DNA of 64,000 nucleotides from Blasia pusilla. Its lineage: Eukaryota. Position numbers and translations under genes: made by a program. The notes under the pieces are model-generated. The model ran no database searches. It saw nothing but the letters and a program-made list of their open reading frames with translations, and had not been told where the DNA came from. This document shows positions 11,236 to 60,801 of the stretch, one piece after another; the first letter of the stretch is position 1; every line of letters begins with the position of its first letter. Location of the stretch: the NCBI GenBank assembly GCA_050084515.1, contig CM114271.1, positions 27,776,001 through 27,840,000 of the forward strand. The letters are read 5' to 3'.

Positions 11236-11378
11236 GCCAACTCACTTAGATCTCCTCCTCGTTTCTTGCGTCCCTCCTCGAGCGTCCGAGTCTAGTTGCT
11301 ACCTTGAAATTTCCCAAGCGTCTGGCTGATCCCACGACCCCAACTTCTCGCTCACCAAGGATAAGCTCTAATACCACT

Positions 11379-17300: not shown

Positions 17301-17379
17301 TCTATACGGATTTGTGGACCCCTCAACGTACTCAAATCATGCAAACTAATTCCTATGACTCCTAAGGAATTGATGTAAT

Positions 17380-18950: not shown

Positions 18951-19549
18951 ATCACTATCGTATTGAGAGTTTTTCTTTGAATAAGGGCGGACTTTCTAGT
19001 TATGGCAGACATTAATAAAAGGTGAATCCTCTAAGAATTTTTTCTTCTCAATACAAAATTACTATATACAATCTTCATTCTCTCACGACATGAATCACGA
19101 ATGGTAGTGTCGAGACGATCACTTCTTCATAACATCTAACCCCGAAATTCCTAACTATAAAGTCTCTCTATAAACTACTTTACGCTTGTACACAAGAAAA
19201 ATGGCACAACTAGTGTTAAACCCTACTCGAGTAGATCTATTAACATCCATGGATCGCTATGTAAAGACATACAAAGTAAAATCCCATGTTTTTGGAGACC
19301 TACAGTAGCCAAAGGCGGTCATAAACTGCAATGGTAGGACTAATGCAATCATAGAATTTCACGTGGATATGTCTCCCAACTGGATGCCCTCAGAGTCGAG
19401 AAAGCCAAAATGAGGGATGTGGAGTCGCCAATGACCAACATTAATTTTTTACGGCACTTGTCGAGGCCGTCAATATTAGGAACGATGGTTGTGTATTTAA
19501 TAATAGAATCTGTCATTGTGGATGGACGAATTTCCATAGTATGTCTTTG

Positions 19550-19950
19550 AGGAAGTAAGAGGAAAGCTTCAAGAGGTTGAGGATAACCTAAGAGAGCAAG
19601 ATTTTCTTTATTTTGGACTCATTTGGAGTCATATTAAGAAACTTTGAATTTTGGATTAATTCCTATTATGAGCAAAATTTCCTCTCCATTTTGGGATGTG
19701 ATCTTTCAGCCCCTTCTACATGTTAAGAGCCAATGAGATGAACTGTATGCATAGATCACCAAGGAGAAAATTTGGGGATACAGAAGGGGCATACCCTAAG
19801 GAGATAGAAGAAGAGAGAGAGTTTGGGAGCTCATTTTCTCTTTGTTGAACCTCCTTTCATGAGGTAGGGAGTTACGATCCTCCTCGCCTTATGCGTAACC
19901 CAAACCTCTCATTAGGAGAGATGATTTGGTTTAATACAAGAGAGAATGGA
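19550..19950 (+). repeat. Diverged terminal-repeat (B part) fragment of the DNMT-gypsy family
   Basis: gagctcattttctctttgttgaacctc...aacccaaacctctcattaggagag matches ~56320-56415. Confidence 0.7.
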
Positions 19951-21479: not shown

Positions 21480-22460
21480 GAGTACGAAGCAAGTCTCAAT
21501 TTGACATATAGTGCAATTGATGCTATGATTTCTTGAGGTCAACAATGCAAAATTACTAGTGTTCCTTGCCAAATAATATCTCCTTGTTGGGACTCGAGAG
21601 AGCATGGCTTAGATTGGATGGGTATCATTTATTTAATTAATGTCACTTAGCTATGTTAGGGCCAATTGAGTGTTGGACGAGGCCTAGGGGTGGTTTGGGA
21701 GATCAACGATCTAGGTTATTTTGGAAGATAGTCAGGATCTTGCAACGTCTACACGAGGACCAATCTCATTAACCCCTATTATGGAGAATGTACCGTTGTT
21801 GGGTGACTCATGGATATGAGCGGTGACAAGTTTACACTAGGTTTATGAATGGATTGGACGAGTAATGTTCGCACATGGATCGGGTCTAAGCATCGTTCAA
21901 TGCTTTGACTTGATAGTTGCATCTACTATCGATCATGGATTTAAGCTATCAATGGAGTTTGGATTTTTCAAGGCCTTTACCATTAATGAAGCATCACAAT
22001 CGCAATGTGTTGGATCAAGATCAAGCATTTCTTACAATTGTATAGAGTTGGTTGCATTTCTTGACAAAGCAAGTGAGGGATCGAATAGCATATGCATTTC
22101 TAGATCGAGTGTTAAGTGAGTATGGTATAGTAGTGGAGGTGTTGATAAACTAGAGTACTTAGTTTTCTAGGGAGCTTCAAGCTTTTTTTGATCAGATGTT
22201 GATCAACCACCATATCACTTCCGAGATAATCTTGAGGTGGATGGATTAGTAGAGCGAGTTGTCTGGACGGATAAGAGGTGTTTATGCAAGTATGGCTTAA
22301 AGATGCAACACTACTCATCGTGATGTTGGTGGGATGTTGAACCTTGATAACCTTGAGATGTGGATGCGAGCATGTTCTCGATGGACCAAGACACTTAGGA
22401 TAGCCCTCCTTATGATGTGAGAGAACTTAGCTAGCTATCGCACAACATTGAGATACAATG
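21480..22460 (+). mobile_element. Highly decayed relic of the DNMT-gypsy family (methyltransferase motifs IV-VI joined to integrase)
   Basis: 21540-21870 resembles the reverse complement of ~47870-48185 (e.g. ggagaatgtacc = ENVP); gcatcgttcaatgct at ~21890 and 22200-22460 resemble the integrase region 44450-45130. Confidence 0.6.
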
Positions 22461-40805: not shown

Positions 40806-42759
40806 TTCATATTCACTTCACTTTCTCTTGTGAACTCATGTATGGTTTTGTTTCGTTTCTGGAATGTCTAGCAGTAGTTGCTCTCATTCATTAGAACAAA
40901 AGAACGTTTCCCACGTGTTTCTCGATCCGAAAGTAAGATAACCAGTCCGAGGACACCTGGTCCTTTCTAATGTCATATACGTAAGAAGGCTCTCACCCAA
41001 TGTTTCTCAACTATCAGATACATCTCGCTGTTCCCCGGGATCCGAAGGCGTTAACCCTTCATACATCCTGCATATGGTCGTTAGCTAAATTATTTCCGGG
41101 TTTATGGATGTAGGCCTAGCCATTGCTTAAGCGAAATCCACGGGTGCAATCCATCCTGTGTTCCAATGGATTTCCCGCAAAGTGGAATCATAGGAGTTGC
41201 TTTCGTCTTAGGTCTTTTCGTTATGGGTGGTTTGTTCATCGCGTGTGGTGTATGCGTAAGTAGTCTTGAGCAATCAAACGTCCTCATAACTCATGTCTTG
41301 GGACCATCCTTGGCTTCTGCCAAGTCTACATACCAGGCTATCTCTCTGCTTCCGATCCCTATCTCGTTGTGATTCCCTGCGTCGAACTGGTTTCGGTGGC
41401 TTGACGATCGGTGGTCCTGCAGGGCTACCCTCTGGTGCCTTCGGAACTTCAGCCATCGCTCCACCCTTTTGAAGCTCACCTCTCAAAATCTTAGCGAGGC
41501 GATGTTTCCTTCCGTTCAGAGCGCCACAGTTAATTGCCCTACACCACCTTATTCCACTAGCAATAGTCAAGATCCTAGATCGCTCGCACTCAACCTTCCA
41601 ATACTTCGCTGGGCGAGCAATATCAACAGACTGGACCACTATTGAAAGAGCCGCCCCGTGTTTCACTCGCAACCACACGCAAACGCTCCTCGTGAACGTG
41701 CAAGTAAAGCCATGGAATCCAACTGAATTGCAAGGACTAGACAGAAGCTTAACCAGGTGACAGTTGTGGTGGCCCATCCTCTGCGGGTAGACATTGAAAG
41801 AACCACCCCACCTGTAGGCGTCCCGGGGTATGCCGGATACACCCTGTAAGCGGGGTATCTGAAGAAGAATCCGTTTCTGTCCAACCGGGTAATGCCCGGA
41901 CTATGTCGTGATCTCTGATCCTATTATGTTAGAAATCGTAGTGTGTTATGAAATTGTGAATTACTACAGCACCAAATATATTGAGTTTTTTTAATTACAT
42001 TGTCACATTGAGTGTGCTCTCACACCTCCAGCCTCGTAATGAACTCTAAGTATTTTTAGAAATAGGTGCCTTATTGAGACGGGGTGAGAAAAGGGCCAAA
42101 CATTAGTTATACGTGATAGTATGGGATTGCAAAATTCCTTCTCCAACGATTGGCATTGTCCTCCGACGACTCCTATCCAGTAGACATTTGTAATTTTAAG
42201 GAATTAAGTTAAGAAACAAGGTTAAGGTTATGTTAAGACACAAGATAACTAAGCTAAAGTAATAATTTTATTTTGTGCATAGCATGGGCATTGTTTTTGG
42301 GATTAAGTGAGAAGTTACTCCAAGAGGAAAATGGCAAGATTTGTCTCTAGTGAAGAGCTTGAATCCTTCCATATGGTAGCAATCCATACTCCAACAGTCG
42401 TTTTCAATCCTTTACAATCCCATGATCAAATTGACTAAGCTAATCTACCTACAATCAAAGGTTAGGAGTTTGCATCCAAAAGTCACATTCCTAATGATTA
42501 TGAGTCTTGTTAATGGTGTCACTACATTCGATGGTGAATAACTCTCTCCCAAACCGCTTATGATTTGACTCGCTCGACTCTACTGGCATTACTTCCAACT
42601 TTGGCTTGTAACCCACAATCTCGAGCATGATGCACAACTTCTAATACCATGAGCCAAGTAGAGCAAAGAGCATCTTGTGTCCATCCCTTAGGGATCGATC
42701 CCATGCACAATTTCTTAGAGTCGCAACCCAGGGCAAGAAACCTCTTTCGATCTCACCCC

Positions 42760-43063
42760 CAGCCACTACATCACCTTTCTTGGTAGGCATGGGGCTCAAC
42801 AATGCAACATTTGTGACCTATCACAACCTCATGTGACATTGCATGTAAACCAGTTCAGGTCCATCGCCTAACTCAAGACATGACGCCATGATGCCTATGA
42901 TACTGACAATACTGTCGTCACTCCTGTGGGAAATCTCATCCCTCCCTCTCGCTCATCCGCCTTGGGCTCCATCAAGCATTGTGCCTGGTCATCCCAAACC
43001 AAGCCAAGTCTAGCCTCCTTATGTGCATAGGAAGCAAGAAAACTCACAAATGTGGGAAAGGCT
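42760..43063 (-). mobile_element. Older DNMT-gypsy relic, left part (host of the younger insertion)
   Basis: Matches ~47330-47640 (methyltransferase motifs IX-X); continues at 53198. Confidence 0.8.
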
Positions 43064-43706
43064 TATCGTGCGCATACACATTGCTACACAACATACATCG
43101 TTGTCAGCGAACACACACTCAAACACGCACGATCCCATGCTAACTCATGGCATCCAAATAACGAGACAAGAAGTACTAAAATATCTCCAATTAAAGTAAG
43201 ATCCAATCTCTCTCTACACCATCTCACACCATAGCTCTCAAAGGTGTGCACTCTCTCTCATGTCAAACCAAACCCACTCTCCTAATAAGAGGCTCGGGTT
43301 ACACTCACAAGGCAAGGGACCATAGCTCCGCTGCCTCATGCCAAGAGGTTCAACAAAGAGAGAATGAGCTCTCAAGCTCTCTCTCCTTGAGGTATACCCC
43401 TCCCCTCTCCCAAGCTCTCTCCATGGTAACTTATTCTCCCAAGTCACCTCCTTGGCTCTTGACCTGATGTAGGAGGTCAAGGGCCAATTACCAAAAATCG
43501 AAAGTTGATCATCTACTCAAAATGGTATTTACCTAAAATAGTAAGTTACTCAATATGGCTCCAAATGAGCCGAAACGAAGGGGAAAACCTGCTCTCTCAG
43601 ATTTCCCGATGCCTTAGCAGGTTATCCTCGACCTACTGAGCCTGTCCTCCACTACTCACGAAGGCGATCTACTAGATCTCACCAATCTATCCTAAAATAC
43701 GTGACA
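43064..43706 (-). repeat. Complete 3' terminal repeat (A 128 bp + B 515 bp) of the DNMT-gypsy element
   Basis: Homologous end to end with the solo repeat 55985-56616 (opposite orientation); t(a/g)tcgtg...cgtgaca termini. Confidence 0.9.
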
Positions 43707-43708
43707 GC

Positions 43709-43836
43709 TGTCGTGCGCATACACATCGCTACACAACATACATCGTTGTCACCGAACACACACACAAACACGCACGATCCCATGCTAACTCATGGCATCC
43801 AAACAACGAGAGAAGAAGTACTAAAATATCTCCAAT
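43709..43836 (-). repeat. Extra copy of repeat A, separated from the full repeat by 'gc'
   Basis: tgtcgtgcgcatacaca...aaaatatctccaat repeats 43064-43191. Confidence 0.9.
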
Positions 43837-44008
43837 CGTCCCCTAGCTTGTGGTTAGGTCCCTCTAACTCCATATAGCCATCTATCCCTACCTACCATGA
43901 CATACATCTCTAGGATGTTAAGAGCAGAAAGGCTGGATGCTTATGTGGCCCATCGTTAGTTGCCTTCCTATTATCCATGTCACAGAAAAATTCGGAATCG
44001 AAACCTAC

Positions 44009-45260
44009 CTAGTATCTCCTCTTTGTACATCTGGGACACATCCATCGTCCCCGAGGAACCCTAGTGAGAGGTGGCATCAGACATGCCATATGCCAACCAC
44101 TCGAACATCCATCACAAACTAGCATCGTGGCCGCACCACGAGCAGAACCACACAACATACAATGCAAGCCTGCAGGAACTACTATTGAGCTCGGATCTAC
44201 TGTATCATCAATGTTAGGAAGGTGACATGGCGCACAATTATGCACATGGTCCTTCCATACCATACCATCGCGTCCCTCCAGCAAGAGAACACCGGATGGC
44301 AAAACGTCACGTACTCTCAGGATAGTGCGTCTTACAGTCACATCCAACGTCGTCGGTGCCGTCTGCTGCAAGTAGACATAATCTCCTTGATGAAACCTCT
44401 TGATAGTTGGTCAATAACCACCGCCCCGAATAGTCGCATACCTCAACGTATCCCGATGCTGCGCAATCGCCAAGTTCTCGAACGCCATGGGCATCACTCT
44501 TCGAAACAACACAGCCCTCTGAGAACATGCTCGCATCCATACATCTGGGTCATCAAGGTCCAGCACCTCACTAGCATCTCGACGAATGGCCGTAGGTAAA
44601 TCTGGATCTCGGCCATAAAGTAGCAAGTACGGTGAAAAAGACGCTAATGATGCCTGCCTGTTGCATCTGTATCCCATCGCCAACCATGGTTACTGGAGGT
44701 CCCAATCTCCTAGATGACCTCTCTGCAAGCCATACTTGCGTAAACCCCTCTTCACCATCTGCACAACTCTCTCCGTTAATCCGTCCGCCCTAGGATGATC
44801 TCGCGAAGTTGTGCGGTGATCGATCAGCACCTGATCACACAAGGCCTGGAACTCACCGCGAAACTCGGTAGCCTGGTCTGTCAACACCTCAGCCGATACG
44901 CCATAATGACTCAACACTCTATCAAGGAAGGCATAAGCTACTCCCTCACTCGCTTTGTCAGGCAATGCAACCAACTCGATCCACTTCGAGAAGTGCTCGA
45001 CCATCACCAACACATAACGACTATGACGCTCCGTCAAAGGCAAAGATCCTGCAAAATCCAAATTCCCTCTATACCCTAAGCCCATGATCGGTAATGGGTG
45101 TAATTGTGGAGTCGGAGCATTGAACGATGCTCCAACCTAATCACACACCATGCACCTGGCAACAAACTGTTGAACGTCAGTCTGCATGCCTCGCCACCAA
45201 TACTAAATCTGGAGCAAACTTTACGTCCACTTCACCCCAAAGTGACCCAACTCCTCGTGG
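44009..45260 (-). pseudogene. Integrase (DDE core) with C-terminal PHD finger
   Basis: DFAGSLPLTERHSRYVLVMVEHFSKW...VLTDQATEF...HPRADGLTERVVQ; PHD CMLC-x10-CDGC-x4-H-x2-CLMPPLTRVPRGRWMCPRC at ~44024-44163. Confidence 0.9.
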
Positions 45261-45361
45261 GTTGGCTGTACTAGTTGTGCTCTCTGCGAAGGATGCAGCA
45301 CTACGCGTACTCTACCATCCTCCCAAACCCTCAAAACATGTGTCCCCTCCCAACGGAACAG

Positions 45362-47010
45362 TCAGGCCCGCTGTAGGATCCGATCCCGCTCTCTAGCACC
45401 CACGGTGCTTGCAACGCTGCCTATACGACGGTACTCCAAAACTACTCCATCATCATGAATATCTCGGCCACGTGTCGTCTCCTCACTGGCCTCGGGATCC
45501 AAGGACTCTCCACTAGACCTTGCCATCGATGTCTCCACACTCTGGCTCTCCAATGCCAACATGTCTAAATAGGCTGACGCGTGCCATCCTGGCACTGACT
45601 CCTCATCACTCTCTCCATGCCATCGAGCTCCAGTCGCATCTCGCTGACTCACGCATGGGTTACGACTCAACCCATCTGCATCCTGGTTGAGCGTCTTAGG
45701 TCTATGTACCACCTGAAAATCATACTTTTGCACCAACAGAGCCCATCTTGCAAGCTTCCATGTAAGCTTGTCAGACTCCATCAACCACTTCAGTGGTTGA
45801 TGATCAGTGATGATAGTAAAGGGGTTTCCGAATAAGTAACACCTGAAATGCGCAACAACCCACACTCCAGCCAAGCACTCACTCTCATACGAGTTGTACT
45901 TCACCTCTGCAGCGTTGTTCGAGGGGCTAGCGTAAGCCACCAGGAACTCTCTACCCTCATCATCATGATGGGTGAGCACCGCTCCAAGCCCCAGCATGCT
46001 CCAATCTGTGTGCACGTGGAAAAGACGCCTCCTGATCGGTCTCCTCAAGATGGACGCCGACGTCAACCTGTCCTTGAGCAATTGAATGCTCGCTCCTGCT
46101 CATCCCCCCAGTGCCACTCATTATCCACCTTGGTCAGCAAGGTCGGCGGCTTCACAATCGAACTGAATCCCTTGACGTACCGCTGATGGAAGTTTGCCAA
46201 TCCCATGAATGCGCGAACACGGCTCACATCTGTAGGGCGTGGAATGCGTGAGATAGCCTCTACCTTCGTCTGCTGAACACCAAGGCCCCTTGGGTATATC
46301 GTATGACCGAAGTACTCAATCTGGTTGTAGAAGAACTTGCACTTGCCTGGATGTAGCTTCAGCCCATGTAATTGCAATTGTCAAAACACCTCCTCTAGAT
46401 ATCGCTCATGCTCCTCAACCGTGGCGCTAAAGACTACAATGTCATCAATATAACACCTAGCAAAATCCAGACCAGCCAAGATCCTATCCATGACCCTCTC
46501 AACTCAGCCGGGGCGTTCTTTAAACCAAATGGTAAGAACCGCCACTAGTACAAAAAATCCTTCCCGTGAGGATCGATGCCCCAAAATGTCATCTGCTACC
46601 TGTCCTCCAATCTGATAAGCAGCTGATGGTATCCGGCTCATAAATCCAATGAATTGAAAACCTTTGTATGACCAATCGCATCAAAGATCTCCTCAAGGGT
46701 GGGCATGGCATACCTATCGGACTTCGTGTGCCGATTGATAGGTCGGTAATCCCCACACATCCGCCTATCCGTCCAGTTGTCATGCACGTCCTTCTTGGCG
46801 GGCATGACAGTGGCAGATGCATACTCCCCATGCGACATCTCCACTAGTCCTGCTCCAACCAAGTCTTGGCTCCTACTCTGAATCAGAGCCCTCTCCATAT
46901 CATTGTACCTGTAGGGTCGTCGGAAGATCGGCGTATCACTCGAAAACTCAATGCGGATCCCCGATCCCTTCAACGTACCCAAATCCTCCATGCTAAACCC
47001 AAAGCATCTC
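45362..47010 (-). pseudogene. Reverse transcriptase and RNase H of the DNMT-gypsy element
   Basis: PIFRRPYRY, RRMCGDYRPIN...SLDL, PFGLKNAP and YIDDIV (46430-46540), HTDWSMLGLGAVL, ITDHQPLKWL, NQDADGLSR. Confidence 0.92.
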
Positions 47011-47419
47011 CTATAACTCCTGAGGAACTGATATATTCGGTGCCGCTCTCCTCCTATCAACTTAGGCTCCCAAGTCTCCATCGTGACTACGATAGCACTC
47101 TCCGGCGCGGATATCGGTGGTTGCAATGGTGCAAGCCCGTCTCGAACAACAACACTCAATTTCTCTCCTGGATCCAACTGCAAACTCTGATCTCCTCCAC
47201 ATGCAGTGCCCGAAACCACGCTCGATGTTGTGGCTATCATCTCCTGGCATACCTGCAAAACATCCCAAGAAGTCCAAGGGTGTCTCTCTCGATCTCCCCT
47301 GGTGTGTCGATCTCCTCGGCTCTTGCCCCCAACCACTGCCTTCACCTTCTCGGAGGCAGAGGGCTCACCAACGCAACCGTTGTGATCTGTCACGATCTCA
47401 TCCGACGCTGCTCAGCCAC

Positions 47420-48362
47420 TCCCAAGCTGAAGATCCATGTCAAGCAGCTCAAGTCCATCGCCTGACCCAAGACATGGCGTCGTGATGCCTCTGAGACTGC
47501 CGTCACTCTTGGGGGGAATCATATCACCCGCTCTCTCTCGTTGGTGTTGGGCTCACCAACCTCTAAACCTGGTCATCCCAAACCAAGCAATTGGCCTCCT
47601 TGTATGCATAGGAAGCGGGAAAACTCACAAACGTGGGAAATATTGCCCGCTTCTTGCCTACCCTGTTGACCACAGTCAACGGTGGTCGATCATCGTGCCT
47701 CATTGTCTGTGACCGAAAATCTGGATCCACAAAGGAATCCACTAACAAATGGGAGGGGCGCTCCACTATCGCATACGCCCTCCGTAACACCGCATGGGGC
47801 ACCAAGTTGGTCCACCATACACGCGGGCGATGGACTCTAGAGCCTACACTCGCCGCAACCAAGAACACTGTTGGGCCGATCCACGCACGCACCTTATGAG
47901 CACTCATCACCACCCGTGACCTAGAGTCTCCTAAGATGGGCACATTCTCCAGAATGTTGGCTGGAGAATGAGACTGGTGCTCCTGCAACTGCCATAAGAC
48001 CCTCAACATCTCCGAAAACAACCTCGACCGAGTATCAGCCAACCCGCTTCCTCGTCCACCACTCGATTGGCCCTGACATGGCCAACCATAAATGACCAAA
48101 TCAATGGTCCCTACCCGCTCTAAGTCCTGCGCCCCCAATAATGAAATATCCCTTGGTAGGGAACTCTGGTATTCCTGTACCGCGGACGCAAACAATAAGT
48201 CGAGAAAACGTAGGCGTAACTGTGCCACATGTCGTAGTGAGATGCGCCTCGCAACATGATCACTCTCCACATACATATACTATTGTACTCGCACTCCTGC
48301 CTGCAAAACATCAACTAACCTGGTGCTAATCCCTCCAAAGAGATCTAACACTCAAATACCCT
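47420..48362 (-). pseudogene. DNMT3-like DNA (cytosine-5)-methyltransferase domain inside the retrotransposon polyprotein
   Basis: Motif I GI*VLDLFGGIST; II YVESD; IV DLVIYGWPCQG; RLFSEMLRVL; VI ILENV; VIII VHRPRVWWTNL; IX-X (after a frameshift) ERERVI*FP...SRRHVLGQAMDL. Confidence 0.9.
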
Positions 48363-48788
48363 CCTCCGGGGTACACCATACAATGGGTGTGGTATCCAAG
48401 GGTGTCATCGTAGCACTCCCTGATACCTCAGGTTCCTCAGACCCGTCATGCTTCGGTGAAAATGCCTCCATCCACGCGGTTTGCACGTGCTCATCTGCCA
48501 ATCGTCGGAGCTCCTCAGTCAAGCCCCACAACAGCACCTCTCCTCCACGAAATGATGCGGCTACCATAACACTCCTCTCCATAGAAATGTTAGGAATGGG
48601 AGTATCCTCTGCATGGACATGTCCCTCAATCAAATCACTAGTTCAAGTGATGGCACTACTAAATGCTGCTAAGGTCACCATCTCTCCTCGCCGTTGCTCG
48701 ATCACTGCACATGTGAATCGAACGGGTAATGAGCTAAGGCGCCCATCACCGACCGCCATCCACAGTGCAGAGGGGCCGACTCTTCCCA

Positions 48789-50830
48789 TTAATCCAGAGA
48801 AAACCCCATCGGGTATAACATTGCTCCACCAACCAAGACGTCGTAGGACTCTGCATCAGTCACTATCGCCTTGGCTCGCACCACGAACTCATCTGGAGGA
48901 TGTCCCGGGCGAATCCTCACCACGACCTCCTGTCCATCACCTCTTCTGCAGTCACCTCTAATGTGATGCAGGAACTCCAACTCCATGCTCACATAGCGTA
49001 GCGGCCAGCCAAAGGCCTCGGCGGGCGTACCCCCCAACGTCATAATATCGGAAGCAAAAAATAAAGGAGCGTGGTACACAATGGTGGCCGCCCCCAACAA
49101 CGTGCTCGAAACATGCCCCTCCTGAGCATCAACAATAAAAGGCTTCGCACTCGCTTCTCCCATCGCCCTTCGTGCTTGCACACCAACAACATCACCAACT
49201 CTCCAGGAACTGTGATCAGGACCCATCGATGAGGTCCTCATCGCCTCAGACAACGTGAAAGACTGAGGAAGCCTAGTCTGTTTCCTGGCTTCCCCTCGTT
49301 GTGGATCCAACTCTGTGGCTGCTCCACGCGTCACAACTACGGCGGCCTCTATCTGGGCAACCCCGTACATCCAACCAGGATCCTCCATATCTCTGGCTAC
49401 TCCATATGATGTCGATGCCACGCATCGGGCATCGGGTAATCTCAATGCCATAGCGGCAATCTGCTCCTGTAGCTGATGTATCTGAGCAACCATCCTAGCC
49501 TCACGCCCGGCATCTCCCTCGACGCGTCTAGGTGTTAGGACTATACCTCCTCCACGGGCAGCTCCACCACCCTCTCGGGAAACTCCAGCTCCTCGTCCCC
49601 CAACGGGACCACCTGGTGCACGATCTCTAGGCCCATCCCGACCGGTTACTCGCTCTAGTGCCCTCTCTGGCCCTCGATCCGGATGTAGCTCAGGATGTAA
49701 ACTGAAACATCTGGCATGTGTGTGACCAAACCTCTGACAATAGTCATATTGATAACCTCCTGGTGCAGCACCATCTCCTCCATGCTGAGGCACACGTCCA
49801 TGACCCTGACGAGTGCAATCGCGCTGATGATGGGCTCTACCACATGACCAACAAGTAGTAGTAGGCGGCTACTGCTGAGCCGCATATAAAGGCGCAGGTC
49901 TCTGTGGCACGGCCTCCCAATATCCTCCTTGAGCTCGTGGTGCCACAGTCGACCTATCTTGGAGTCCACGTTGCTGCATAGGTAGTGTAGAAAATCGTGA
50001 CTGCTCTCGCCCAGAACCCATGGTGGCTACGCTCTCCTCCGCCATGTTGCGCTCAATGTTCTCGGCGGTCCTAAAAACATCTTTGAACGTAGGGGAGGTG
50101 TTCATAAGAAGCATCCCCTCCCGCACCCGTGTCCGCAAGCTCCCATCCAGCATCGCGTACCATGACTGGATAGCATGAGCCTCTGTCACCCCCTGAGTGA
50201 CGTTGATCAACCAGCGCAAGCGAGTGTTACTCACAAAATCTCACACGGGCGCCTATGGAAGTTGTGGATGCTCCGCAACTTCTCCATCTGTATCCCGTGG
50301 TAGCTCGCTCTCAACTCAGCTAAGAACTCAACCACATGGTTGAACCTAGGACGAACCCGACTAGACGGTGCAATTGCTCTAGTGCGAGTGACCTCTCCTA
50401 AAACATCACAAGTGGAAGAGGAAGTAGCCTCTCTTGACTCCTCCTCCTCCTCCTCATCTAGGAACGGCTCCGTCCATGACACATAATGTGGGTCATAGTA
50501 GAGCCTCCACGCCTAGATCTCACGTGCATATCTCTGAGAGAACTCATGGTTATCGTCCATTGGCATCCCCTCTAAATGCTGGAACATACCGTTCCATGCT
50601 GTAAACGGGTTGAACTCTCTAGAGTTCCCGGCCCGTTGGGAGTTGCACCAACTACTAAACTCTGCTATGAAATTGTGCAACTCAATCGTGCCTACTGCAC
50701 ATGAAAACCTACGCGGTCCTCTACCCCGATCGTCCATCTCGTACGCCCAACTGGTAGGACCACTCACAATGTGTGGCGATGTGCTCACAAACTCCTCTAC
50801 ACGCTCCCCCTCGACTGAAGACGACACACA
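48789..50830 (-). pseudogene. Gag (with degenerate zinc knuckle) and C-terminal half of the aspartic protease
   Basis: YQYDYCQRFGHTHARC knuckle; VVVRIRPG...AESYDVLVGGAML protease C-terminus; catalytic D(T/S)G not found. Confidence 0.65.
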
Positions 50831-51924
50831 AAGAGATCAAGGTGGTCTCTCATGTAGAGACCCTCGAAACCTCGCACCACTCTGGGTAAACCCTCCAGAG
50901 CTACTCTTAGGTCCACTACTTCGCCTCTCAAAATCCTAAAAGGACGCCGTGATGGCCCTCATGCCCCTCTCACACGATCACTCTCAACCTCGCGAGTTAT
51001 CCCTCAATCACTCATCCCAAACATGCGGCACTCGATCTACATTCTCCCTCCCCGAGACGTATATCGTGCGGCAACAAGCGGCGTGGTGCGGAAAATCGAC
51101 CAGGCTATTATCTCATCGATAACCTACCCTCAACTCAGGACATCCCATACAGGTCTATGTCCCCGAAACCACATACATAACTAATGCTCTCAGCATCCAC
51201 ACACCCAATATCCCCAAATAAACTACCTAAATCCCAGAATCCCTCACACGTGCAGGGTAAAGGACCAAAATGGGTAACCTGAACACATGTCGATGTCGCT
51301 CCTCAGCAACTGCAAATCTCGACCCCAACTTGGTCATGGAGACAAATCCTCCAATCAGTAAGTCATACTCCTCCTGTACTGATGCTGCTTAAAACTCCTT
51401 GATGGACAGTGCGATTCCAGTGGAACGGTGCGGCGTTGGAGGCGGCACAAGACGACTTCGAACGGCACGGCCCTCGATGGTGGGATGCGGCACTCGGCAG
51501 CATACCCTCCTCAATCAACAATAAACCCACACTCTGCTCCACAATGACGGTACGGCTTCGCGATCAAGACCGCACGGTGCGGCCACGAGCGGCACTACGC
51601 GGCAATCGGCGGCGTGTTGCGGCTACGGGCGTCACGGCACGGTACTCGATCGTCATCGAGCGGCTACCAATCACAACATCGCATCATGAAATCAAAACTC
51701 AAACACCATAATTGGAAGTCATCTACCATCACTGGTTGATGAAGAAACTGCGATGACGGTGGCGGCAGTTTTGTCATCAACCAGTGATGGTGATGGTCAG
51801 AGAATCAACGGTGGTCGTGGAAGACCCTCCACTTCATAATGGCGGAAATGGCAACCAAAGGGTGGACAACGGCCGAATGCAACTCTGACCAACGATGGGA
51901 AACGGCAACGGCCGACAGTGGCCA

Positions 51925-52105
51925 GTGGACGGTTGGACCGTTGATGGTGACGGTTGATTGTTGACGGTGACGACGGATCGTTGACGGTAACGGCGACGGT
52001 TGACCGTTGACGGTGACAGTTGACCGTTGAATGTGGGTGTGATGGTTGACCGTCGATGGTGACCTTTGACCGTTGATGGGTGACGGTGACGATGACGATG
52101 ACGGT
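51925..52105. repeat. Degenerate short tandem array (gttgacc/gttgacggtgac units) in the 5' leader of the DNMT-gypsy element
   Basis: Repeated gttgaccgttgacggtgac-like motifs. Confidence 0.75.
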
Positions 52106-52683
52106 CGCCGCCGGCGTGGCGGCTAGTTTAGGGTTTGAACAATTTAATCCTAAAAATCGCCTAGCAATGGCAATTTTGCAAGATTGACCATAACGTTTAC
52201 TTGCAACTCCAAATTGAGCATCATTTGTTGCACAACATGCATAGCTTCACGATCTACAATGGCAACAAAAAATATTTGGAATTGGATATTCCAGTAAAAA
52301 CTGACAGGGATTGTCGTAAAGCCTAATGTCTCTTTCTCCTACACCAAATTTAGCAGCGCTTCCGCGCAGATTTCTCCCAACCAAAATATAAAACCTATAA
52401 AAATACAAATCAGCAAGCTATATGGTGCTCCCGAGAGCACCGGCATGGTGCAACCCACCCCCATAATCAATCCCTATCAAAAATTGGGCAGCGCTTCCGC
52501 ACGCCACTCTTCCACACGAAAAATCGGCAAATGCAAAGAACAATCAAAGCAACCCTTGCTCCGGTGAGCACTCCCATGAGCCGCTGAATGGGGAACACGG
52601 TCCCCAACCTGCAAAAACAGAGAGTAACCAGCGAGCTCCCCCATGAAGCTATCTCACTCTCTCATTCTCTCATTCTCTCTTTG

Positions 52684-53197
52684 TAAAGTAAGATCCAATC
52701 TCTCTCTACACCATCTCACACCATAGCTCTCAAAGGTGTGCACTCTCTCTCATGTCAAACCAAACCCACTCTCCTAATGAGAGGTTTGGGTTACACTCAC
52801 AAGGCAAGGGACCATGGCTCCGCCGCCTCATGCCAAGAGATTCAACAAAAAGAGAATGAGCTCTCAAGCTCTCTCTCCTTGAGGTATACCCCTCCCTTCT
52901 CCCAAGCTCTCTCCATGGTAACCTATTCTCCCAAGTCACCTCCTTGGCTCTTGACTTGATGTAGGAGGTCAAGAGCCACTTACCAAAAATAGAAAGTTGA
53001 TCATATACTCAAAATCGTATTTATCTAAAATAGTAAGTTATTCAATATGGCTCCAAATGAGCCGAAACGAAGGAGAAACCTGCTCTCTCAGGTTTCCCGG
53101 GGCCTCAACAGGTCATCCTTGACCTTTAGAGCCTGTCCTCCACTACTCACGAAGGCGCTCTACTAGATCTCACTGATCTATCCTAAAAGACGTGATA
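52684..53197 (-). repeat. 5' terminal repeat consisting of B only
   Basis: taaagtaagatccaatc...cgtgata repeats 43192-43706; A absent. Confidence 0.9.
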
Positions 53198-53630
53198 GGC
53201 TGCTCGTGGCATGCCAATCCTATTGACCACAGTCAACGGCGGTCGATCATCATGCCTCACTGCCTATGATAGACGATCAGGATCCATAATGGAATCCACT
53301 ATCAAATGGGAGATCCGCTCCACTCTCGCATAAGCCCTCCGCAACACCTCATGTGGCATCAAGTTGGTCCACCATAGATGCAAGCAATGTGCTCATAATC
53401 CTACACTCGACACATCCAAAAACATTGTTAGGCCAATCCATGTGCGCACTTGATGTGCACTCCTCATCACACGTGACCTCAAATGGCCCAAAATCAACAC
53501 ATTCTCTAGAATGTATGCTGGAGAATGCGACTGATGCTCTTGCAAGTGTCGCAAGATCCTCATCATCTCCCAAAAAAACCTCGATCAAGTATCAGCCTAC
53601 TTGCTACCTTGTCCAACACTCAACTAGCCA
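53198..53630 (-). mobile_element. Older DNMT-gypsy relic, right part (continuation of 42760-43063)
   Basis: Matches ~47645-48070 (methyltransferase TRD, motif VI ENV, downstream of motif IV). Confidence 0.8.
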
Positions 53631-56600
53631 GTCTAGATGAGAACTCTCCTTCATCCACTCTTAGCTTCACACTGTGGTCCAACAGTGTAGAGATTGGCTT
53701 ACAAGTCGTGATATCATATTTTGAAAGCATATAAAGAGCATATTGTCGTTGTAGTAACCACATGCTCTTTCCAACCTTTATAAACTCAATACCAAGGAAG
53801 TACTTGAGCTCTCCCAAGTCCTTCATATCAAATTCTGCTTTTAACTTAAGCTTGACTTTTTGTACCATTTCTTCAGTACTCCCAGTAATCACGAGTAATC
53901 AATATACAACACAATGAGAATCGTATGATTCTGTCCTCTCAAGACATATAACAAAGAGTCATACTCACAAACCCTAAATCCCAACTCTTGTGGAACGTAC
54001 GTAATCTTGTCATACCAAGCTCTAGGAGCTTGTTTGAGCCCATATAGAGCTTTCTTCAACGTACATACGTGAAATGGAAACTTGGGATGCTCGTATCTAG
54101 GTGGTTGAGTCATATATACCTCCTCGTATAGATCTCTATTCAAGAAGGCATTCTTGACGTCCATGTGATGTAATCTCCACTTCTTACTTACTACAACTGC
54201 AACCACTTTTCTCGTAGTCGCCATCTTTGCAACAGGGCTAAATATTTTCTTATAATCGATGACATATTGTTGTGCATAGCCCTTAGCCACCAATCTCGCT
54301 TTGTATCTGTTAATTGTACCATCTTGATTGCGCTTGATTTTGTAAACCCATTTGCAACCAATAGCTTCCTTACCGAAAGGTATATCAACCAGCTCTCATG
54401 TTTGTTGATGTCTTAATGCAGCAAGCTCTTCCTCCATAGCTTCAATCCATTCGACTTTACTTGCAGCTTCTTCAAAACAACTCGGCTCTTGTTCTTGAAG
54501 GGTAGTCATCATATATGCATCATGTGCCGCAAGGAAACCTTTATTTATGAATCTATGAACTGGATGTGTAACTCTACTTGATCTACAAAGTTGTTGTTCA
54601 GAGGTAGATGCCTCTGACACCTGACTCAAGCTCTGACTAGTGTCAACAGACTGAATACGCACTCTTCCCATTCATGGACTCACAGATTTAACTAATGAAT
54701 CTAGGACCTCTCCTAATCCTGCACTAGTACTTGAGGAAGTTGAAGACAATGTCTATTGGTTTACAGTCATATTCTCCCCCTCAACAGACGAGTTTAGAAG
54801 GGGAATAGGCTCAGATGGAGCATACCATGACTTTAGTTCATCAAAGACAATATCGCGACTAATAATAAGTTGCCTAGAGGATGGAATGTAGCACTTATAT
54901 CCCTTAGTTCCATCAGCATAGCCAATGAAGATACACTTTTAGAATTAGGGTCTAATTTTTGATGTCTCTCAGAAGGAACATGAGCATAACGAATACAGCC
55001 AAATACTTTCAAGAAGGAGAAATCAGGTTTCCTTCCTATGAAGACTTCGAATGGGGTTTTATCATGAACTCCTATTGTTGGAGTTTGGTTGATTAAGAAG
55101 ACTGCACATGCTACAACCTCTACCCAATATACCTTAGGCATGTTCTTCTCATTCAACATAGCTCGTGTCGCTTCAGCAATATGTCGATTCTTCCTCTCAG
55201 CCACTCCATTTTCTTGTCGAGTGTAACGGCAAGTCACTTGACGTTGGATGTGATTCTAACGTAAATAGTCATCAAACTTTGTTGAAAGATACTCTCCTCC
55301 TCCGTCACAACGCAATTTCAGAATGTGTTCTATAGTGTGCTTCTCTACTAGAACTCTGGATATTTAGAACACTGAGAATACCTCTGACTTGGCTTTAAGA
55401 AAGTATACCCATATATACCTAGAGAAGTAATGAACAAATGAAACAACGTACTTGCAACCACTAAGGCAATATTGTGATATTGTCCACACATCACTATGGA
55501 TCAACTCTAATATCCTAGATGCTCTTCTACCTTGCTTTGGAAAAGGAAATCTAGCTTGTTTTCCAAATTGGCAAACACGATAAACCTCTAACGTAGTAGG
55601 ACTCCCTAATTTAGGAAGTCCTATTACTATATTAGATGATGAAAGATTCTATAATCTTTGAAGATTCATATGTCCAATTCTTTTATGCCACACATTTAGA
55701 TCTGTGACTTGTTGGCATGTTTGACCATACATTATTGTTTGAATCTTATTTGAACATTCTGCCAGATCTAGTTCCTTTGGCTATCGTAGTGTGGTCAACC
55801 ATTATTTCAATGAAACAACCATCTGCGTTAAACTTCAGTTGATAACCCTGTTCTACTATCTGTCCTACAGAGATCAGATTTATTGCAATGGTAGGAACAT
55901 AGAGAACGTTTCCAAGAGCACAAAGACCATCTGATGCTATTGGAACTTTATCGGTATGCGTGATATGATGTTGAGTGTCATCTCTGTCACGACTGTTAGG
56001 ATAGATCGGTGGGATCTAGCAAAGCGTCTGCACGAGTAGTGGAAGACATACCCAGGAGGTCGAGGATGACCTGTTGAGGCTCCGAAAAACCTGAGAGAGC
56101 AAGTTTCCCCTTCGTTTCAACTCATTTGGAGCCATATAGAGAAACTTACTATTTCGAGTAAGTTTCGATATTGGGGATAGTTGACTTTCCACTTTCAGAA
56201 GTGGCCCTTGACCCGCTACAGCAGGTTAAGAGCCAAGGAGATGACCTGCGAGCATAGGTTACTATTGAGAGGGCTTGGGAGAGGGAAGGAAATATACCTC
56301 AAGGAGAGAGAGAGCTTGAGAGCTCATTCTCTCTTTGTTGAACCTCTTGGCATAAGTTGGCGGAGCTATGGTCCCTTGCCTTGTGAGTGTAACCCAAGCC
56401 TCTCATTAGGAGAGTGGGTTTGGTTTGACATGAGAGAGAGTGCATACCTTTGAGAGCTATAGTGTAGAGAGAGATTCGATTTTACTTTATTGGAGATATT
56501 TTGGTACTTCTCACCTCTGTGTATGGATGCCATGAGTTAGCATGGGATCGTGTGTGTTTGTGTGTGTATTCGATGACAGCGATGTATGTTGTGTAGCGAT

Positions 56601-56858
56601 GTGCATGCACACGATATCTCCTGTGAGCACAATTGCAGGATCTTTCACCGGCTCCAAACTACTAAACTATTTAACTTGTGAGGTCATGTGATTTGATGCA
56701 CCAGAGTCAATATACCAATCTGCTGTCGAGTTTTTCTTGACCATTGTTGCCATATGATGAGTCATAACCAAGAGATGCTCTGGTTGTGAATGTTGTTGTT
56801 CTTGGTACTGCTATTCGTATTGTTGCTCCACATAGTTTTGTTGCTATAAGGCTCTAGT
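53631..56858 (-). mobile_element. Ty1/copia internal fragment (protease-integrase-RT), same family as 3986-14318
   Basis: QENGVAERKNRHI (integrase); LVAKGYAQ, MDVKNAFLN, LKKALYGLKQAPRAW, FDMKDLGELKYFLGIE (RT); 55775-55984 and 56617-56853 closely match 12381-12825. Confidence 0.9.
55985..56616 (+). repeat. Solo terminal repeat (B+A, 632 bp) of the DNMT-gypsy family inserted in copia
   Basis: Reverse complement of 43064-43706; tgtcacg...cacgata termini; TSD TCTC (55981-55984 / 56617-56620); the empty site gtcatctcct is visible in the other copia copy near 12583. Confidence 0.9.
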
Positions 56859-59800
56859 TGTCGCGCCCCTACTCTCCTTGAACGCCAATCTTTAGTGTTG
56901 CGGAAGCGTACGTTCAGTAGGCCACAATCTCATCGCCGATCTGCACCCAAACATGCGCTCTCGTTAGTCGGTCTCGGCCAACCAGCGTTCCAACCCACTG
57001 AGTTCTCACTCGACGTCTCATCAAGCTCAACCTTCCTTAATTCCTAGTTTCCAAAACATGGCAAGTCCTTCAAGACTTGGAACAAACTTCCTGGTTAGTC
57101 CAGGGATCTGAAACGGCACTTTCGCGCCTAGCGATCCCAACTATTCAACGGACCTCGTGTGAGCTCCAAACCGAGACCCAAGTTATTGAGTCGCGGGGTG
57201 AAATCCAAGAGGGATGTCTAAAATCGCCTCGATAGACTTGGTGCAGGTTTTCCAACCCAACTCCCAAACTCGCGTTCCGTTCCATGCCCTTGAGCCGCCC
57301 AAAGTGGGGTTCGGGTTCCAAGCACTCTCGCAGACCTTCCTCTTTACTAGTACTTCAGGGGTTCTCCAATAACCCGCCCCCTCTTGAAACGGAGGGTCGG
57401 GCCCTTCATTGTGGCCCTCAACCCGACTCCACTTACACTCGTTTCCGGGTTGTTTCTCAACCGCTGCATATGGGTTTGCAGATATCTTTAGTGTGTTTGA
57501 ACCGGCTTTCCATAAGTCTTCTAACACACCCTTGTTCAATCAAAACGCATCTTGGCGCTAAAAGTTATGGCCACAAATACAGTCAAAAACTCTCAAACGC
57601 TAGTGGCATTCCAAATCCGGATTCTTCCTTTGGCACCCCACTTCCTAGACTCAACTCCTTTCAAGTCTTGATCCGCGTTTCGTCCAGGTTTCCCAGTTAC
57701 GACCATCACATCTGAAACGCAAAGCCTTGCTTGCGTCTCGTCTCTTGTCTCTTCTTCGAGACCACTCCAACGCGCAAACCATCTTAGCGTGAGCCCGCCA
57801 ATGTTTCGATGTTCCGCTTTGGCACTTGTTTGGTCATGAGGGTCGCGACACTCATCCCTCTTTAGAGGTTGATGCCCTGATCAACGCAAACCTTTGTTAT
57901 GTCAAGTCTCCTGGGCAGCCTACCCCTTGACATTGAATTGCGTTCTGGTGGCTAACCCGCAATTCCTCTTAGTCTATAGTTGTTGCTTTGCCCCACTTAG
58001 AATTATTAACCTCTCCTCTTTGATAAGCTTGGACTAGTTGAAGGAACTAACCTATCAAATAAGCTAACTAAGTGTGCAACCTTAGACTCTTCTAACTCAT
58101 TCCTATAAACATCACACTTGTTTACCTAGTCTACAAATCGTACTACTTTTGGGTCGCTCTCGTATTCGATTTAGGCGCGTCACTAAGTTTACTTATGTAG
58201 CCACAAGTAAGATCACCCCAAGCCCCAAGATAGATTCATCTGCCCCGCCGACGCTAGGGCGAGCCCGAGCGTAATCCAACCCAAGGTCCTGTTCTAGGTG
58301 CTTATCCACATACGATCTCTCACCTCAAATACTCCTTTTCTGTCCTCTTGACTTACATCCTAAGCCTATGATGAACAACTCATAGCCATGCACTACCACA
58401 TACAAATTGCAATCAACTCTGGAATCGAATCTCCAAAATCCATACACTCCTTTATTGCAACACTAGCATATTCTGGTTACAACGGCCTTTGGCCCAAGAT
58501 TCCAATGGTTACAAGTCATGACTCTAGCTTCTCCTCATACTAATGTATGTGCTTCGCTTGCGTTTGCTTGAAGTCTCGCAACAACTCTTGCGCATTTTCC
58601 AAATCCGCCTCCGCAATCCAAGTTGCCTCCTTCACATGGTAGCCCTTCCATTTTACCAAGTATTCATACTTGTTGGCCCGACGCCTCGAACGTAAGATGG
58701 TCTCCATCTCAAACTCCGGCTCTTCATTTATGATCACCGAGTGCGGTCTCACCACCTGTCTCCGCTCGAAACGTCCATTATCTTGAAGATATTTCTTCAA
58801 CAATGACACATGAAAGGTCGGGTGAATCTTGAACTTGTCCGGCAGCCTCAACGTATACACATCCTCAAACGGGTTTGCCACAATCACATACGGTCCAGCA
58901 TACTTGGCAGACAGCTTCGCAGACACCTCTTTCGGAAGAGTGAGGTTCTTCACACTCAACCACACTTGCTCTCCAACTTGGAATCGGTGTTGGCGCTGAC
59001 TCTTGTTAGCATGCTTAACGTACCTCATTTGAGCCTTTGCAAGACTTCGCCTTGCTTGCTCTTCCCGTTCTCGCATCTCCACCAACAAACCTTCTGCCGT
59101 CGCTTGTCGTGTTCGTGCCAATGTAGTACCCTTCGAAAGGGCTAGGTCAAGAGGCCCTTCTGGCTCTCGTCCATTTGCCAGGAGAAACGGAGATTCTCTA
59201 GTTGCAGAATGCTTGGTCGAGTTGTAGCAGTACTCCGCCATGCTCAGCCACTTGACCCAATCTCGTTGATCAAGATCGACATAATTCCTTAATCTTGATT
59301 CACGATTGAGTTTACCTTTTCAGTCTGTCCATCCGTCTGTGGGTGGAAAGTTGTACTGAAACTCAGCTTGGCCTTAAACCTTCTGAACAAGTGCTTCCAG
59401 AAAGCACTGGTAAACTTTGGATCCCGATCTGAAACAATGCTCCTCCGAAAACCGTGAGCACGCCACCAGCTATCGAGAAACAGTTGCGACGTCGTATAAG
59501 TCGTTGCGGAATCCACCGTCGGCACGAATCTCGCCAACTTGCTAAACCGATCAACAATCACAAGTATAGCATTGTATCCCTCAGATTCCGGAAGCCTCGT
59601 GATGAAATCCATACACACACTTTGCAAGGGTCCTTCTGGGATCGGCAAGGGATGCAGCAAGCCTTGTTTCTTATCAGAAGAAACTCTTTTCGCTTGGCAG
59701 GTCACACAGGTCTTCACATATTGAGCAACATCCTCTTTCATGTTGGGCCAAAAGAACCGCTTTGACAGAACAGCCAGCGTAGATTTCTCTCCTTTATGTC

Positions 59801-60801
59801 CTGCCAAGGGTCCGTCGTGACACTCCGTTAACACTTTGGTTCGCATCTTGCCTTGCCCTACATAGATCCTACTCTGCTTGAACCTTAGTAAACCGTGCCT
59901 CAAACTTATGTTGGCCACCTTCTCACCCTGCTTCAACTTCCTCAGGTATTCCTTTGCGTGAGCATCCTTCATATATCCTTCACAAATCCTTCTTTCTAGG
60001 TCTGTTTCTTTAGGGAACATTGCTCTCAAGACCTGTGTCTTTGATGGCATGTGTTCCTCCTTGCGACTCAACGCATCTAGAATCACATTATCTTTACCTG
60101 GCTTGTGAATCAACTCAACATCCATCAGCGCCAAGGTATCATGCCATCGCAGTTGTTTCGGTGTCACTCAATCCTGGGTCTCAAAATACTTGAGTGATAT
60201 ATTATCGGTGAATACTCGCGTCCTGTGGAGCCCTAGATAATGCCGCCACTTCCTCAAGCAATGTACCACCGCGAACAACTCTTTCTCGTGAGTGGGCCAT
60301 CTCCTTTCAGTATCGCTAAGCTTCTTGCTCTTGTATGCTACCGGTCTCCCTTCTTGCACCAACATTCCTGCAACCGCGAAGTCACTAGCATTGGTATGCA
60401 CTTCGAATGGTTTGTCAAACTCCGACAGCTTCAATACTGGTTCCTGCGATAGAATCTGCTTCACTCGGTTGAATGCCTCATTAACTTCGTGGGTCCAAGT
60501 CGTGTTGGAAAACTTTGTTGTCCAATCTGTGAGAGGTCTCACAGTTCCCGAAAATGTTTTCACATAAGTGTGATAGAACTGCACCGCACCTATGAACCTC
60601 CTCATCCCCTTTACAGTGGATGGGGGTTCCCACTCAACAATCGCTTTCACCTTCTCCATGTCTAGACTGACGCCATCTGCACTGACCACGTGACCCAAGA
60701 ATTTGATCTTGCTCAAACCAAATTCGCTCTTCTCTACATTCGCATACAGTTGATTTGCCCTTAGCTTAGACAAGACCGCTCTCACATGTCGAACGTGCTC
60801 C
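56859..60801 (-). mobile_element. 5'-truncated chromovirus copy 2 (3' LTR 56859-57850, PPT, RT-RNaseH-INT-chromodomain)
   Basis: Collinear with 5040-~8972; long ORFs 58540-59241, 59289-60167 and 60168-60803. Confidence 0.93.

Follow-up and report, generated by a model that had tools for sequence, protein, structure and literature searches.

How can a retrotransposon with a DDE integrase end in split direct repeats, a layout that typifies tyrosine-recombinase elements? The question is raised by an element at 43064-53197 of the window, the 64,000-nucleotide (nt) stretch of Blasia pusilla contig CM114271.1 analysed here (assembly GCA_050084515.1, positions 27,776,001 to 27,840,000). Its sense strand is the minus strand, and its unit order, read from 53197 to 43064, is B1-internal-A1-GC-B2-A2. 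The window copy is a decayed member of a permuted-LTR (long terminal repeat) plant retrotransposon family, and the layout B-internal-A-gc-B-A is real and family-wide. The explanation considered probable here is that self-primed reverse transcription would make an LTR of the form A-GC-B, and that integrase would cut a palindrome lying inside it.

Layout and insertion site of the window copy

Repeat search, self-BLAST and direct reading agree on the arrangement of the repeats (coordinates in Table 1). An earlier annotation made from the letters alone (the sequence-only reading) had described the same split-repeat layout, an exact split of the full repeat and a palindrome at the A1/B2 junction, and it was accurate in each respect: the end of B2 and the start of A2 meet at 43192/43191, and the palindrome occupies 43703-43712. 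B1 and B2 are 93.6% identical over 513 nt, A1 and A2 96.0% over 126 nt. The mismatch rates of the two pairs are not different (Fisher p=0.40), and a single event could therefore have given rise to both.

The unit is bounded by a 4-nt target-site duplication. Its flanks (42842-43059 and 53201-53621) match one continuous methylase-region stretch, 47436-48064, at 77-80% identity, and the uninterrupted related stretch 47600-47700 holds a single copy of the target site. Because the flanks form one stretch of an older related copy, the window unit is a single insertion into that copy. Where relatives are uninterrupted, contigs and reads run from 43058 straight to 53197, with 4-5 letters shared. The termini of the window copy read TA...TA (TATCACG...CACGATA); TG/CA is kept at the internal junction and in relatives.

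The layout in relatives

Relatives were collected from metagenome contigs by a methylase-alignment scan, which gave 248 stretches, 147 of them encoding a relative. The best 80 of the 147 (L001-L080) were taken, with 47-60% amino-acid identity; motif scans cover all 80, self-BLAST covers 33, and at least 3.5 kb of downstream sequence is available in 30. All 80 are decayed copies. A viral-contig scan gave a single weak locus (L081, 35% identity over 88 residues), which was not used.

The layout recurs in these relatives. At the 5' side, unrelated flank precedes every one of the 24 B-start rows (22 distinct loci) that lie upstream of the methylase, and A precedes none, so that B opens 22 of 22 distinct 5' ends. 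After the upstream B-ends (25 rows), a leader of the primer-binding-site (PBS) type comes next in 19 and degenerate or other sequence in 6; A comes next in none. At the 3' side, all 28 A-start rows lie downstream of the methylase, 20 after a polypurine tract (PPT), 6 after a B-end and 2 as deletion forms. The first A after the PPT is followed by a two-letter spacer and B, giving A-NN-B(-A), in 6 of 22 distinct loci (L015, L017, L018, L034, L053 and, with a small deletion, L057/58). In the other 16 unrelated flank comes next, and these are plain B-internal-A copies without a terminal repeat. The ordinary two-LTR form, BA-internal-BA, was looked for and occurs in none of the 80 best relatives. 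The mirror form B-A-GC-B-internal-A is seen at 0 of 22 distinct 5' ends, as against the 6 of 22 distinct 3' ends with the observed form.

Two relatives show the full layout. L053 has B1 at 1679-2017, A1 at 10238-10350, GC, B2 at 10353-10691 and A2 at 10693-10805, within a perfect (4/4) duplication of AAGG. L018 has a perfect TCTC duplication, the spacer AT, and a 17-nt filler together with 3-4 extra PPT-side bases at its B2/A2 joint. L017 and L034 read A-NN-B-A, L015 reads A-GC-B up to the contig end, and L057/58 joins A to B through its deletion. The spacer is GC in L015, L017 and L053, AC in L034 and AT in L018; the A-GC-B junction is constant except for this C>T decay (GC, AC, AT) of CAGCTG. 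The B/A joint is direct in the window and differs by one base among L017, L034 and L053. To judge from these alignments, the B/A joint seems to behave like a joint of two ends, and A-GC-B like a constant unit.

Target duplications also flank shorter B-internal-A copies. Among the eight with both ends in view, five have a perfect 4-bp duplication (L044 TGTG, L045 TACA, L065 TGTT, L068 TTCA, L069 CACA), two match at 3/4 and one fails; the chance of at least five perfect 4-bp matches is 5e-11. TG...CA termini are present in L053 and most relatives. From the duplications, integrase evidently acts at CA/TG ends, as the sequence-only reading had proposed.

Some candidates were set aside. L069 and L070 are one locus (99.5% identical) in which a partial B with 9-11 nt of PBS is followed by GCTAG and A; this was considered as a circle junction and may equally be an internal deletion in a rearranged B-internal-A copy. 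Repeats in L050 (16453-17111), L068 (14725-15702) and L010 were dropped, as they match neither A nor B.

Primer-binding site and polypurine tract

The sequence-only reading had seen neither a tRNA PBS after the 5' repeat nor a PPT before the 3' repeat. As regards a tRNA it was right in the literal sense, since the TGG start is absent directly after B1; what stands there instead is a candidate self-priming PBS of the Tf1 type. The search for self-complementarity in the leader, which it had recommended, yields a 15-nt match between the first bases after B1 and a segment within B. The pairing is 15/15 with the B2 copy of this segment and 14/15 with that of B1 itself. In L053 the match is 16 nt long, B positions 164-179 being exactly complementary to the bases that follow B1. 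Complements of these lengths (15 nt in the window, 16 nt in L053) were each reached by 0 of 20,000 shuffles.

The two primer/PBS pairs differ in sequence, and both pair. The distance from the primer segment to the end of B is 176-177 nt in both elements, and a TATAAA stands 26 nt upstream of the primer segment in L053, where the window copy has its TATA-like box at a similar place (Table 1). The base immediately after B is paired with the 3' end of the primer segment, as priming of U5 copying requires. In the predicted R-U5-PBS RNA, the 5' end is closed on the PBS in minimum-free-energy and centroid folds alike (z=-2.9 and -3.7, the latter for the window RNA). Of 18 relatives examined, most keep a primer core of 9-17 nt in this position.

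As regards the PPT, the sequence-only reading does not stand. The purine tract CTAGGGGACG lies at 43846 to 43837, directly before A1, and its counterpart in relatives, CTAGGGGGGCGAG, lies directly before A in 20 of the 28 A-start rows. The motif AGGGACCTAACCAC with a purine G-run directly before A is present in the window and in 22 of the 80 related loci. The A repeat starts at the PPT boundary in A1 and A2 alike, and the B repeat ends exactly at the PBS. The PPT adjoins A1, not B2, and the PBS adjoins B1; a PBS beside the 5' LTR and a PPT beside the 3' LTR are obtained only if the LTR is redefined as A-GC-B.

The A repeat is also conserved in its own right. A of the window (43709-43836) and A of L053 (10238-10350) are 77% identical, most of all in the last 60 nt, and the methylases of the two lineages are only about 55% identical in protein. 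That a non-coding repeat, nearly identical over its last 60 nt, should exceed the methylases in this way suggests that A may be under strong cis function, for example as an integrase binding site or an RNA signal.

Coding content

The element is of the Ty3/gypsy type with a DDE integrase and is not a tyrosine-recombinase element, which bears out the sequence-only reading. In broken frames, the minus strand encodes in order gag-like, CCHC, protease-like, DNA methyltransferase (DNMT), reverse transcriptase (RT), RNase H, integrase and PHD regions. Pfam gives rve, RT_RNaseH, PHD and DNA_methylase, and the top solved-structure match of both integrase and RNase H is Ty3 Gag-Pol (7q5b). A tyrosine recombinase domain was not found by Pfam among 20 open reading frames (ORFs) of at least 100 amino acids on both strands. 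The A1-ORFs-B1-A2-B2 layout, which the sequence-only reading had recognised, is present despite the DDE integrase. Other Ty3/gypsy traits are mixed: the order protease-RT-RNase H-integrase, a short target-site duplication and, outside the window copy, TG...CA termini are found, and two like terminal LTRs are not, the ends being B only and A-GC-B-A.

The methyltransferase (PF00145) lies between the protease-like region and RT, an order repeated in relatives P0008 and P0017; P0017 also has Asp_protease_2 upstream of the methylase. PDB matches of the methyltransferase to DNMT3A and M.HaeIII are weak, and so is its Dnmt3 affinity (E about 3e-3 to DNMT3A). Methylase-bearing polyproteins at 56-61% identity come from Calypogeia, Marchantia and Sphagnum. 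P0023 of Haematococcus lacustris (2747 amino acids) has rve, RVT_1, RNase H and PHD and matches the methylase profile at 31% identity over 95% of the query; given this domain set and match, the methylase-PHD gypsy lineage may reach chlorophyte algae.

Reads and transcripts

Contigs of run X1 and two raw-read RNA runs were used. The joints and loose ends considered are the best supported; 292 further joints and 5178 further loose ends lie beyond them. In organism A the family is very abundant, with a summed contig depth that reaches about 300,000 across A and the 3' part of B and is 10,000-60,000 in the internal region and 300-4,500 in the outermost flanking bins. Among the reads and contigs listed, none spans the whole window copy. 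A one-letter deletion exactly at the B2/A2 joint (43191) is carried by 56 X1 contigs, and one further X1 contig carries an A-AT-B junction.

Stranded RNA covers the whole element at a depth of 20-200, against about 1.6 outside. Almost all reads have the first mate on the plus strand, which for most stranded libraries means RNA from the minus strand, the sense of the element. The reads are mostly 85-95% like the window copy, and only 5-6 per run, of about 6000, reach at least 99%; they therefore come from other copies and report on relatives, not on the window copy. RNA passes over the A-GC-B junction (97 and 174 reads at 43698; 129 and 263 at 43849, just before A1), and 44+68 reads represent a subfamily in which another B comes after A-GC-TGTCA. 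Between 43415 and 43191, RNA depth drops from 121/256 to 16/26. For the RNA 3' end there is a single indication, 7 molecules ending together at 43212 in one run, which are too few to place a poly(A) site.

Some RNA reads skip 1069 nt (45898-46968; 5 and 10 reads) or 31 nt (46180-46212; 7 and 14 reads). Neither skip is bounded by GT..AG on the sense strand, which makes deletion variants among the expressed copies likelier than introns.

Differences among family copies in X1 are dominated by C>T and G>A, at 422 and 414 of about 1700 places (42600-53700). The AC and AT forms to which CAGCTG has decayed, like the TA termini, are what deamination of methylated C would be expected to leave in an element with its own methyltransferase.

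Proposed replication and integration cycle

We infer the transcript ends, the cDNA ends, the integrase cutting and the route by which B is joined to A as follows. The RNA would start inside B, at the segment that folds back on the 15-16 nt just after B; B1 would comprise the 3' part of U3, R and U5, and A1 the 5' part of U3. It would continue through the genes, the PPT, A and the GC palindrome into B2, and end near the end of B2. Given a PBS immediately following B and a PPT immediately preceding A, the ends of the cDNA would be A-start and B-end, and the LTR would be A-GC-B.

The integrase sites, TGTC... and ...GACA (the end of A1 being the putative right-end site), would then lie back to back in the CAGCTG palindrome, inside the LTR and not at its ends. 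A cut after CA on both strands, made before integration, would produce B...A molecules with recessed CA-3'OH ends. With one LTR's worth between the cuts, as in a linear cDNA cut in both LTRs or in a 1-LTR circle, the product would be B-internal-A. Had B-end and A-start been joined beforehand, it would be B-internal-A-GC-B-A, and the B2/A2 joint of the window copy may be such a joint of two cDNA ends. The joining could proceed through a 2-LTR circle, through an equivalent joint, or by cDNA recombining with a B-A unit in the genome. A further product would be B-A by itself, and the permuted insertions would carry 4-bp duplications. The form B-internal-A-GC-B-A holds promoter, R, PBS, genes, PPT, A-GC-U3 and a second R, which would make it the sole launch-competent integrated form. 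That the lineage has uncoupled the ends made by RT from the ends used by integrase, keeping the attachment site as a heritable palindrome inside the LTR, is a broader proposition on which the balance is even.

Weighing the permuted-LTR reading against its rivals

Several points weigh against this cycle. Circles, cDNA ends, transcription start and poly(A) site were not seen directly, and neither of the two RNA runs has a 5' pile at the predicted start. Cutting at over 100 bp from a DNA end is not known for any Ty3/gypsy integrase. If a 2-LTR circle were opened at random, the mirror form and the observed one should be equally frequent, and the counts of 0 and 6 depart from this (p=0.02-0.03); recombination through the longer B, or faster collapse of the mirror form, would explain the bias. 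The 16 B-internal-A copies could be later A1 x A2 deletions and not primary products. Ordinary A-to-leader or PPT-to-B joints may exist in the genome among the joints beyond the best-supported ones. The 80 loci were drawn from 8 metagenome data sets, which may represent few host species, and duplicate loci were merged by eye from identical flanks, L069/L070 alone being formally compared. The window copy itself is dead: it has stop codons and frameshifts, its termini read TA...TA, and its own primer segment carries a mismatch.

A recombination scheme would account for the mirror-form bias. It keeps the permuted-LTR core, but integrase would make only B-internal-A and B-A; the split-repeat copies would form without integrase, by recombination in B between a genomic B-A unit and either a 1-LTR circle or a linear cDNA. 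If the crossover fell in the longer B (339-515 nt), B-internal-A-GC-B-A would result, and if it fell in the short A (113-128 nt), the mirror form, which would explain 6 against 0. B-A joints in X1 have about 10 times the depth of B-leader sequence (235,391 at 43191 vs 25,784 in 52246-52616), although contig depth is not copy number. A precedent is described for Tf1, an efficient integrase-independent, homology-driven route that builds tandem elements (PMC11042837). The scheme needs prior B-A units, however, which would themselves have to come from joined cDNA ends or from split-repeat copies, and it is judged unlikely, if worth keeping in view. A different use of the repeats was put forward by the sequence-only reading, in which B-A is taken as the true LTR, neither terminus is present in the RNA, the A-gc-B junction templates them in a DIRS/Ngaro-like manner, and integrase acts on linear ends. 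The layout does equal A1-ORFs-B1-A2-B2, the junction does contain a copy of both termini, and the repeat structure of a comparable element is likened to DIRS (PMC5890265). Yet the PBS after B and the PPT before A fix the cDNA ends at B-end and A-start, and the junction is then more simply read as a cut site; a junction that could be copied is absent from the 16 distinct relatives which stop at A and show target duplications; and the B/A joint varies between copies, as end joining would give. Templating by the junction is therefore improbable.

The two remaining explanations have far less in their favour. Only a single full copy lies in the window and no listed read or contig spans it, as would suit a one-off rearrangement or assembly error of an ordinary two-LTR gypsy copy. 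Against this, the layout recurs with target duplications in the independent assemblies of L053 and L018 and in part in L015, L017 and L034, A follows none of the 25 upstream B-end rows, another X1 contig and 112 RNA reads carry the A-NN-B junction, and the layout is published for Klebsormidium (PMC5890265). As an explanation of the family, a one-off rearrangement is refuted, and overall it is very improbable. Least credible of all is a tyrosine-recombinase (DIRS/PAT/Ngaro) mechanism with the recombinase acting in trans or missed. Split direct repeats are the hallmark of Ngaro and PAT. A legend on DIRS in PMC5890265 points the same way. Against such a mechanism stand the lack of a recombinase domain in the ORFs searched, the rve, RVT_1 and RNase H domains in the polyproteins of relatives, and the regular 4-bp duplications and TG...CA ends, which are signatures of integrase. 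The permuted-LTR reading remains the one preferred.

Implications

If the lineage as a whole has uncoupled the ends made by RT from those used by integrase, every integration needs an internal cut, most insertions are LTR-less permuted proviruses that are dead on arrival, and only copies that capture the joint of the cDNA ends, of the 2-LTR-circle type, found new copies. Joined cDNA ends would be productive instead of a dead end; nature would here make use of the circle junction as an integration substrate, as had long ago been suggested, and the DIRS-type layout would have been reached by a convergent route. The lineage would extend over liverworts and Sphagnum, with a distant member in Haematococcus and a precedent in Klebsormidium. 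The PBS and PPT positions turn a curiosity of 2018 into a testable model.

There are practical consequences as well. LTR finders expect two like terminal repeats, so a lineage of B-internal-A or B-internal-A-GC-B-A copies would be missed, mis-bounded or mis-dated, and B-B divergence may not date an insertion if recombination was involved. A family with its own cytosine methyltransferase and a predominance of C>T and G>A changes is a good case for the interplay of self-methylation and decay.

Other features of the window

The host copy around the element is itself interrupted, upstream in sense, by a copia-type element whose RT and integrase ORFs lie at 53889-55255 on the minus strand (RVT_2-like and rve-like, judged from translations only). 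Beyond it stands a solo B-A unit of a related subfamily (Table 1), for which a paralogous uninterrupted (empty) site is found at 12586-12600.

Pieces of related elements are present elsewhere in the window. At 21539-22341 (plus), an integrase fragment comes immediately after a methylase piece (residues 32-139), an arrangement that represents either a deletion derivative or a different domain order. A decayed piece at 17228-18848 (minus) holds protease, methylase and RT. A B-like repeat at 19511-19960 (plus) starts with TGTCAT and has a primer-like segment followed by a PBS-like sequence; it has decayed too far for classification.

An ordinary LTR retrotransposon occupies 5040-12382, with two 1005-bp LTRs that are 97.4% alike (5040-6043 and 11379-12382). 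Its first 3.9 kb is repeated at 56859-60801 (91% alike), and gypsy RT/RNase H-like matches lie at 8643-8840 and 60060-60767.

Table 1. Coordinates of the split-repeat element and associated features in the window
Feature	Position	Strand	Remarks
Target-site duplication, upstream copy	53198..53201	-	AGCC (sense); 4 nt repeated at 43060-43063
B1, 5' repeat, 514 nt	52684..53197	-	starts TATCACG (TGTCACG in B2)
TATA-like box in B1	52880..52892	-	GGGGTATACCTCA; 28 nt upstream of primer segment
Proposed self-primer segment and transcription start in B1	52846..52860	-	CTCATTCTCTTTTTG; one C>T mismatch to PBS
Putative self-priming PBS, first 15 nt after B1	52669..52683	-	CAAAGAGAGAATGAG; perfect complement of B2 43368->43354
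20/26-nt tandem repeats in long leader	51939..52092	-	repeat families D5, D6
Broken gag-like ORFs, CCHC zinc knuckle, protease-like region	48792..50836	-	translations; no Pfam match in window copy
C5 cytosine DNA methyltransferase	47566..48279	-	PCQ and ENV motifs; PF00145, E=6e-9
Reverse transcriptase, two broken ORFs	46066..47411	-	translations; P0005 and P0008 have RVT_1 after methylase
RNase H, Ty3/gypsy type	45365..46099	-	PF17917, E=4.9e-31; Ty3 7q5b and 4ol8
DDE integrase core	44693..45136	-	PF00665, E=7.9e-11; Ty3 Gag-Pol 7q5b, E=1e-8
C-terminal PHD finger	44012..44410	-	PF00628, E=2.6e-11
Conserved 3' motif, then purine tract (proposed PPT)	43837..43863	-	AGGGACCTAACCAC, then CTAGGGGACG; adjoins A1
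A1	43709..43836	-	ends GACA
Palindrome GACA-GC-TGTC, proposed internal integrase attachment site	43703-43712	-	GACAGCTGTC
Junction type carrying the CAGCTG palindrome			CATGACAGCTGTCATG
GC spacer between A1 and B2	43707-43708	-	
B2, second B copy, 515 nt	43192..43706	-	
TATA-like box, B2 copy	43388-43400	-	
Primer segment, B2 copy	43354-43368	-	perfect PBS complement
A2, second A copy	43064..43191	-	directly joined to B2 end; ends GATA in window copy
Target-site duplication, downstream copy	43060..43063	-	AGCC
Solo B-A unit, related subfamily	55985..56616	+	84-88% identity; TCTC flanks

Comparison with known systems

DIRS, Ngaro, PAT and TOC1 elements have split direct repeats and a replication logic by which termini and internal junction are circular permutations of each other, and in both respects the window element is like them. 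They encode a tyrosine recombinase and are typically not known to make target duplications, whereas the window element has a DDE integrase and 4-bp duplications. Pararetroviruses (Caulimoviridae, Hepadnaviridae) have circular DNA and a terminally redundant RNA. The window element resembles them in its circular logic, a full RNA needing more than one unit length of template; pararetroviruses are not known to have an integrase or regular integration.

An element of the window's kind has already been noted once. KnitGypsy-Dnmt3 of Klebsormidium nitens is presented as a Gypsy element with Dnmt3 in pol (de Mendoza 2018, PMC5890265, Fig. 4c), and its repeat structure is stated there to be DIRS-like (A-coding-B-A-B) despite its Gypsy domains. 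The two elements are alike in having a cytosine DNMT inside a gypsy polyprotein and DIRS-like repeats. They differ in that the best protein matches of the window element are in liverworts and Sphagnum; no Klebsormidium-named protein was among the 22, 1 and 65 matches of a word-seeded search, in which part of the matches were named. The passages on KnitGypsy-Dnmt3 give no PBS, PPT, target duplication, B-internal-A form or mechanism (PMC5890265). In the literature searched, the name KnitGypsy was not found beyond that paper, and a PBS/PPT reading of such split-repeat gypsy elements did not come to light there.

Self-priming is known for Tf1/sushi and predicted for the Tcn1 clade of mosses and clubmosses, according to the account of Neumann 2019 (PMC6317226), and Tf1 cDNA is reported often to keep PBS and PPT bases at its ends (PMC11042837). 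Like the window element, Tf1/sushi and Tcn1 have no tRNA-type PBS, and the 5' end of their RNA is complementary to the site after U5. They differ from it in having two ordinary LTRs with integrase sites at the ends, a chromodomain instead of a PHD finger, and no DNMT.

The cut proposed here has a parallel in retroviruses, where the integrases of foamy virus (PMC1180852) and HIV-1 (PMC1905944) are reported to cut palindromic LTR-LTR junctions. In both cases, a DDE integrase would cut a palindrome formed by two back-to-back ends. The retroviral 2-LTR junction is made anew by ligation and belongs to a side route, whereas the junction of the window element would be inherited and would be the normal substrate.

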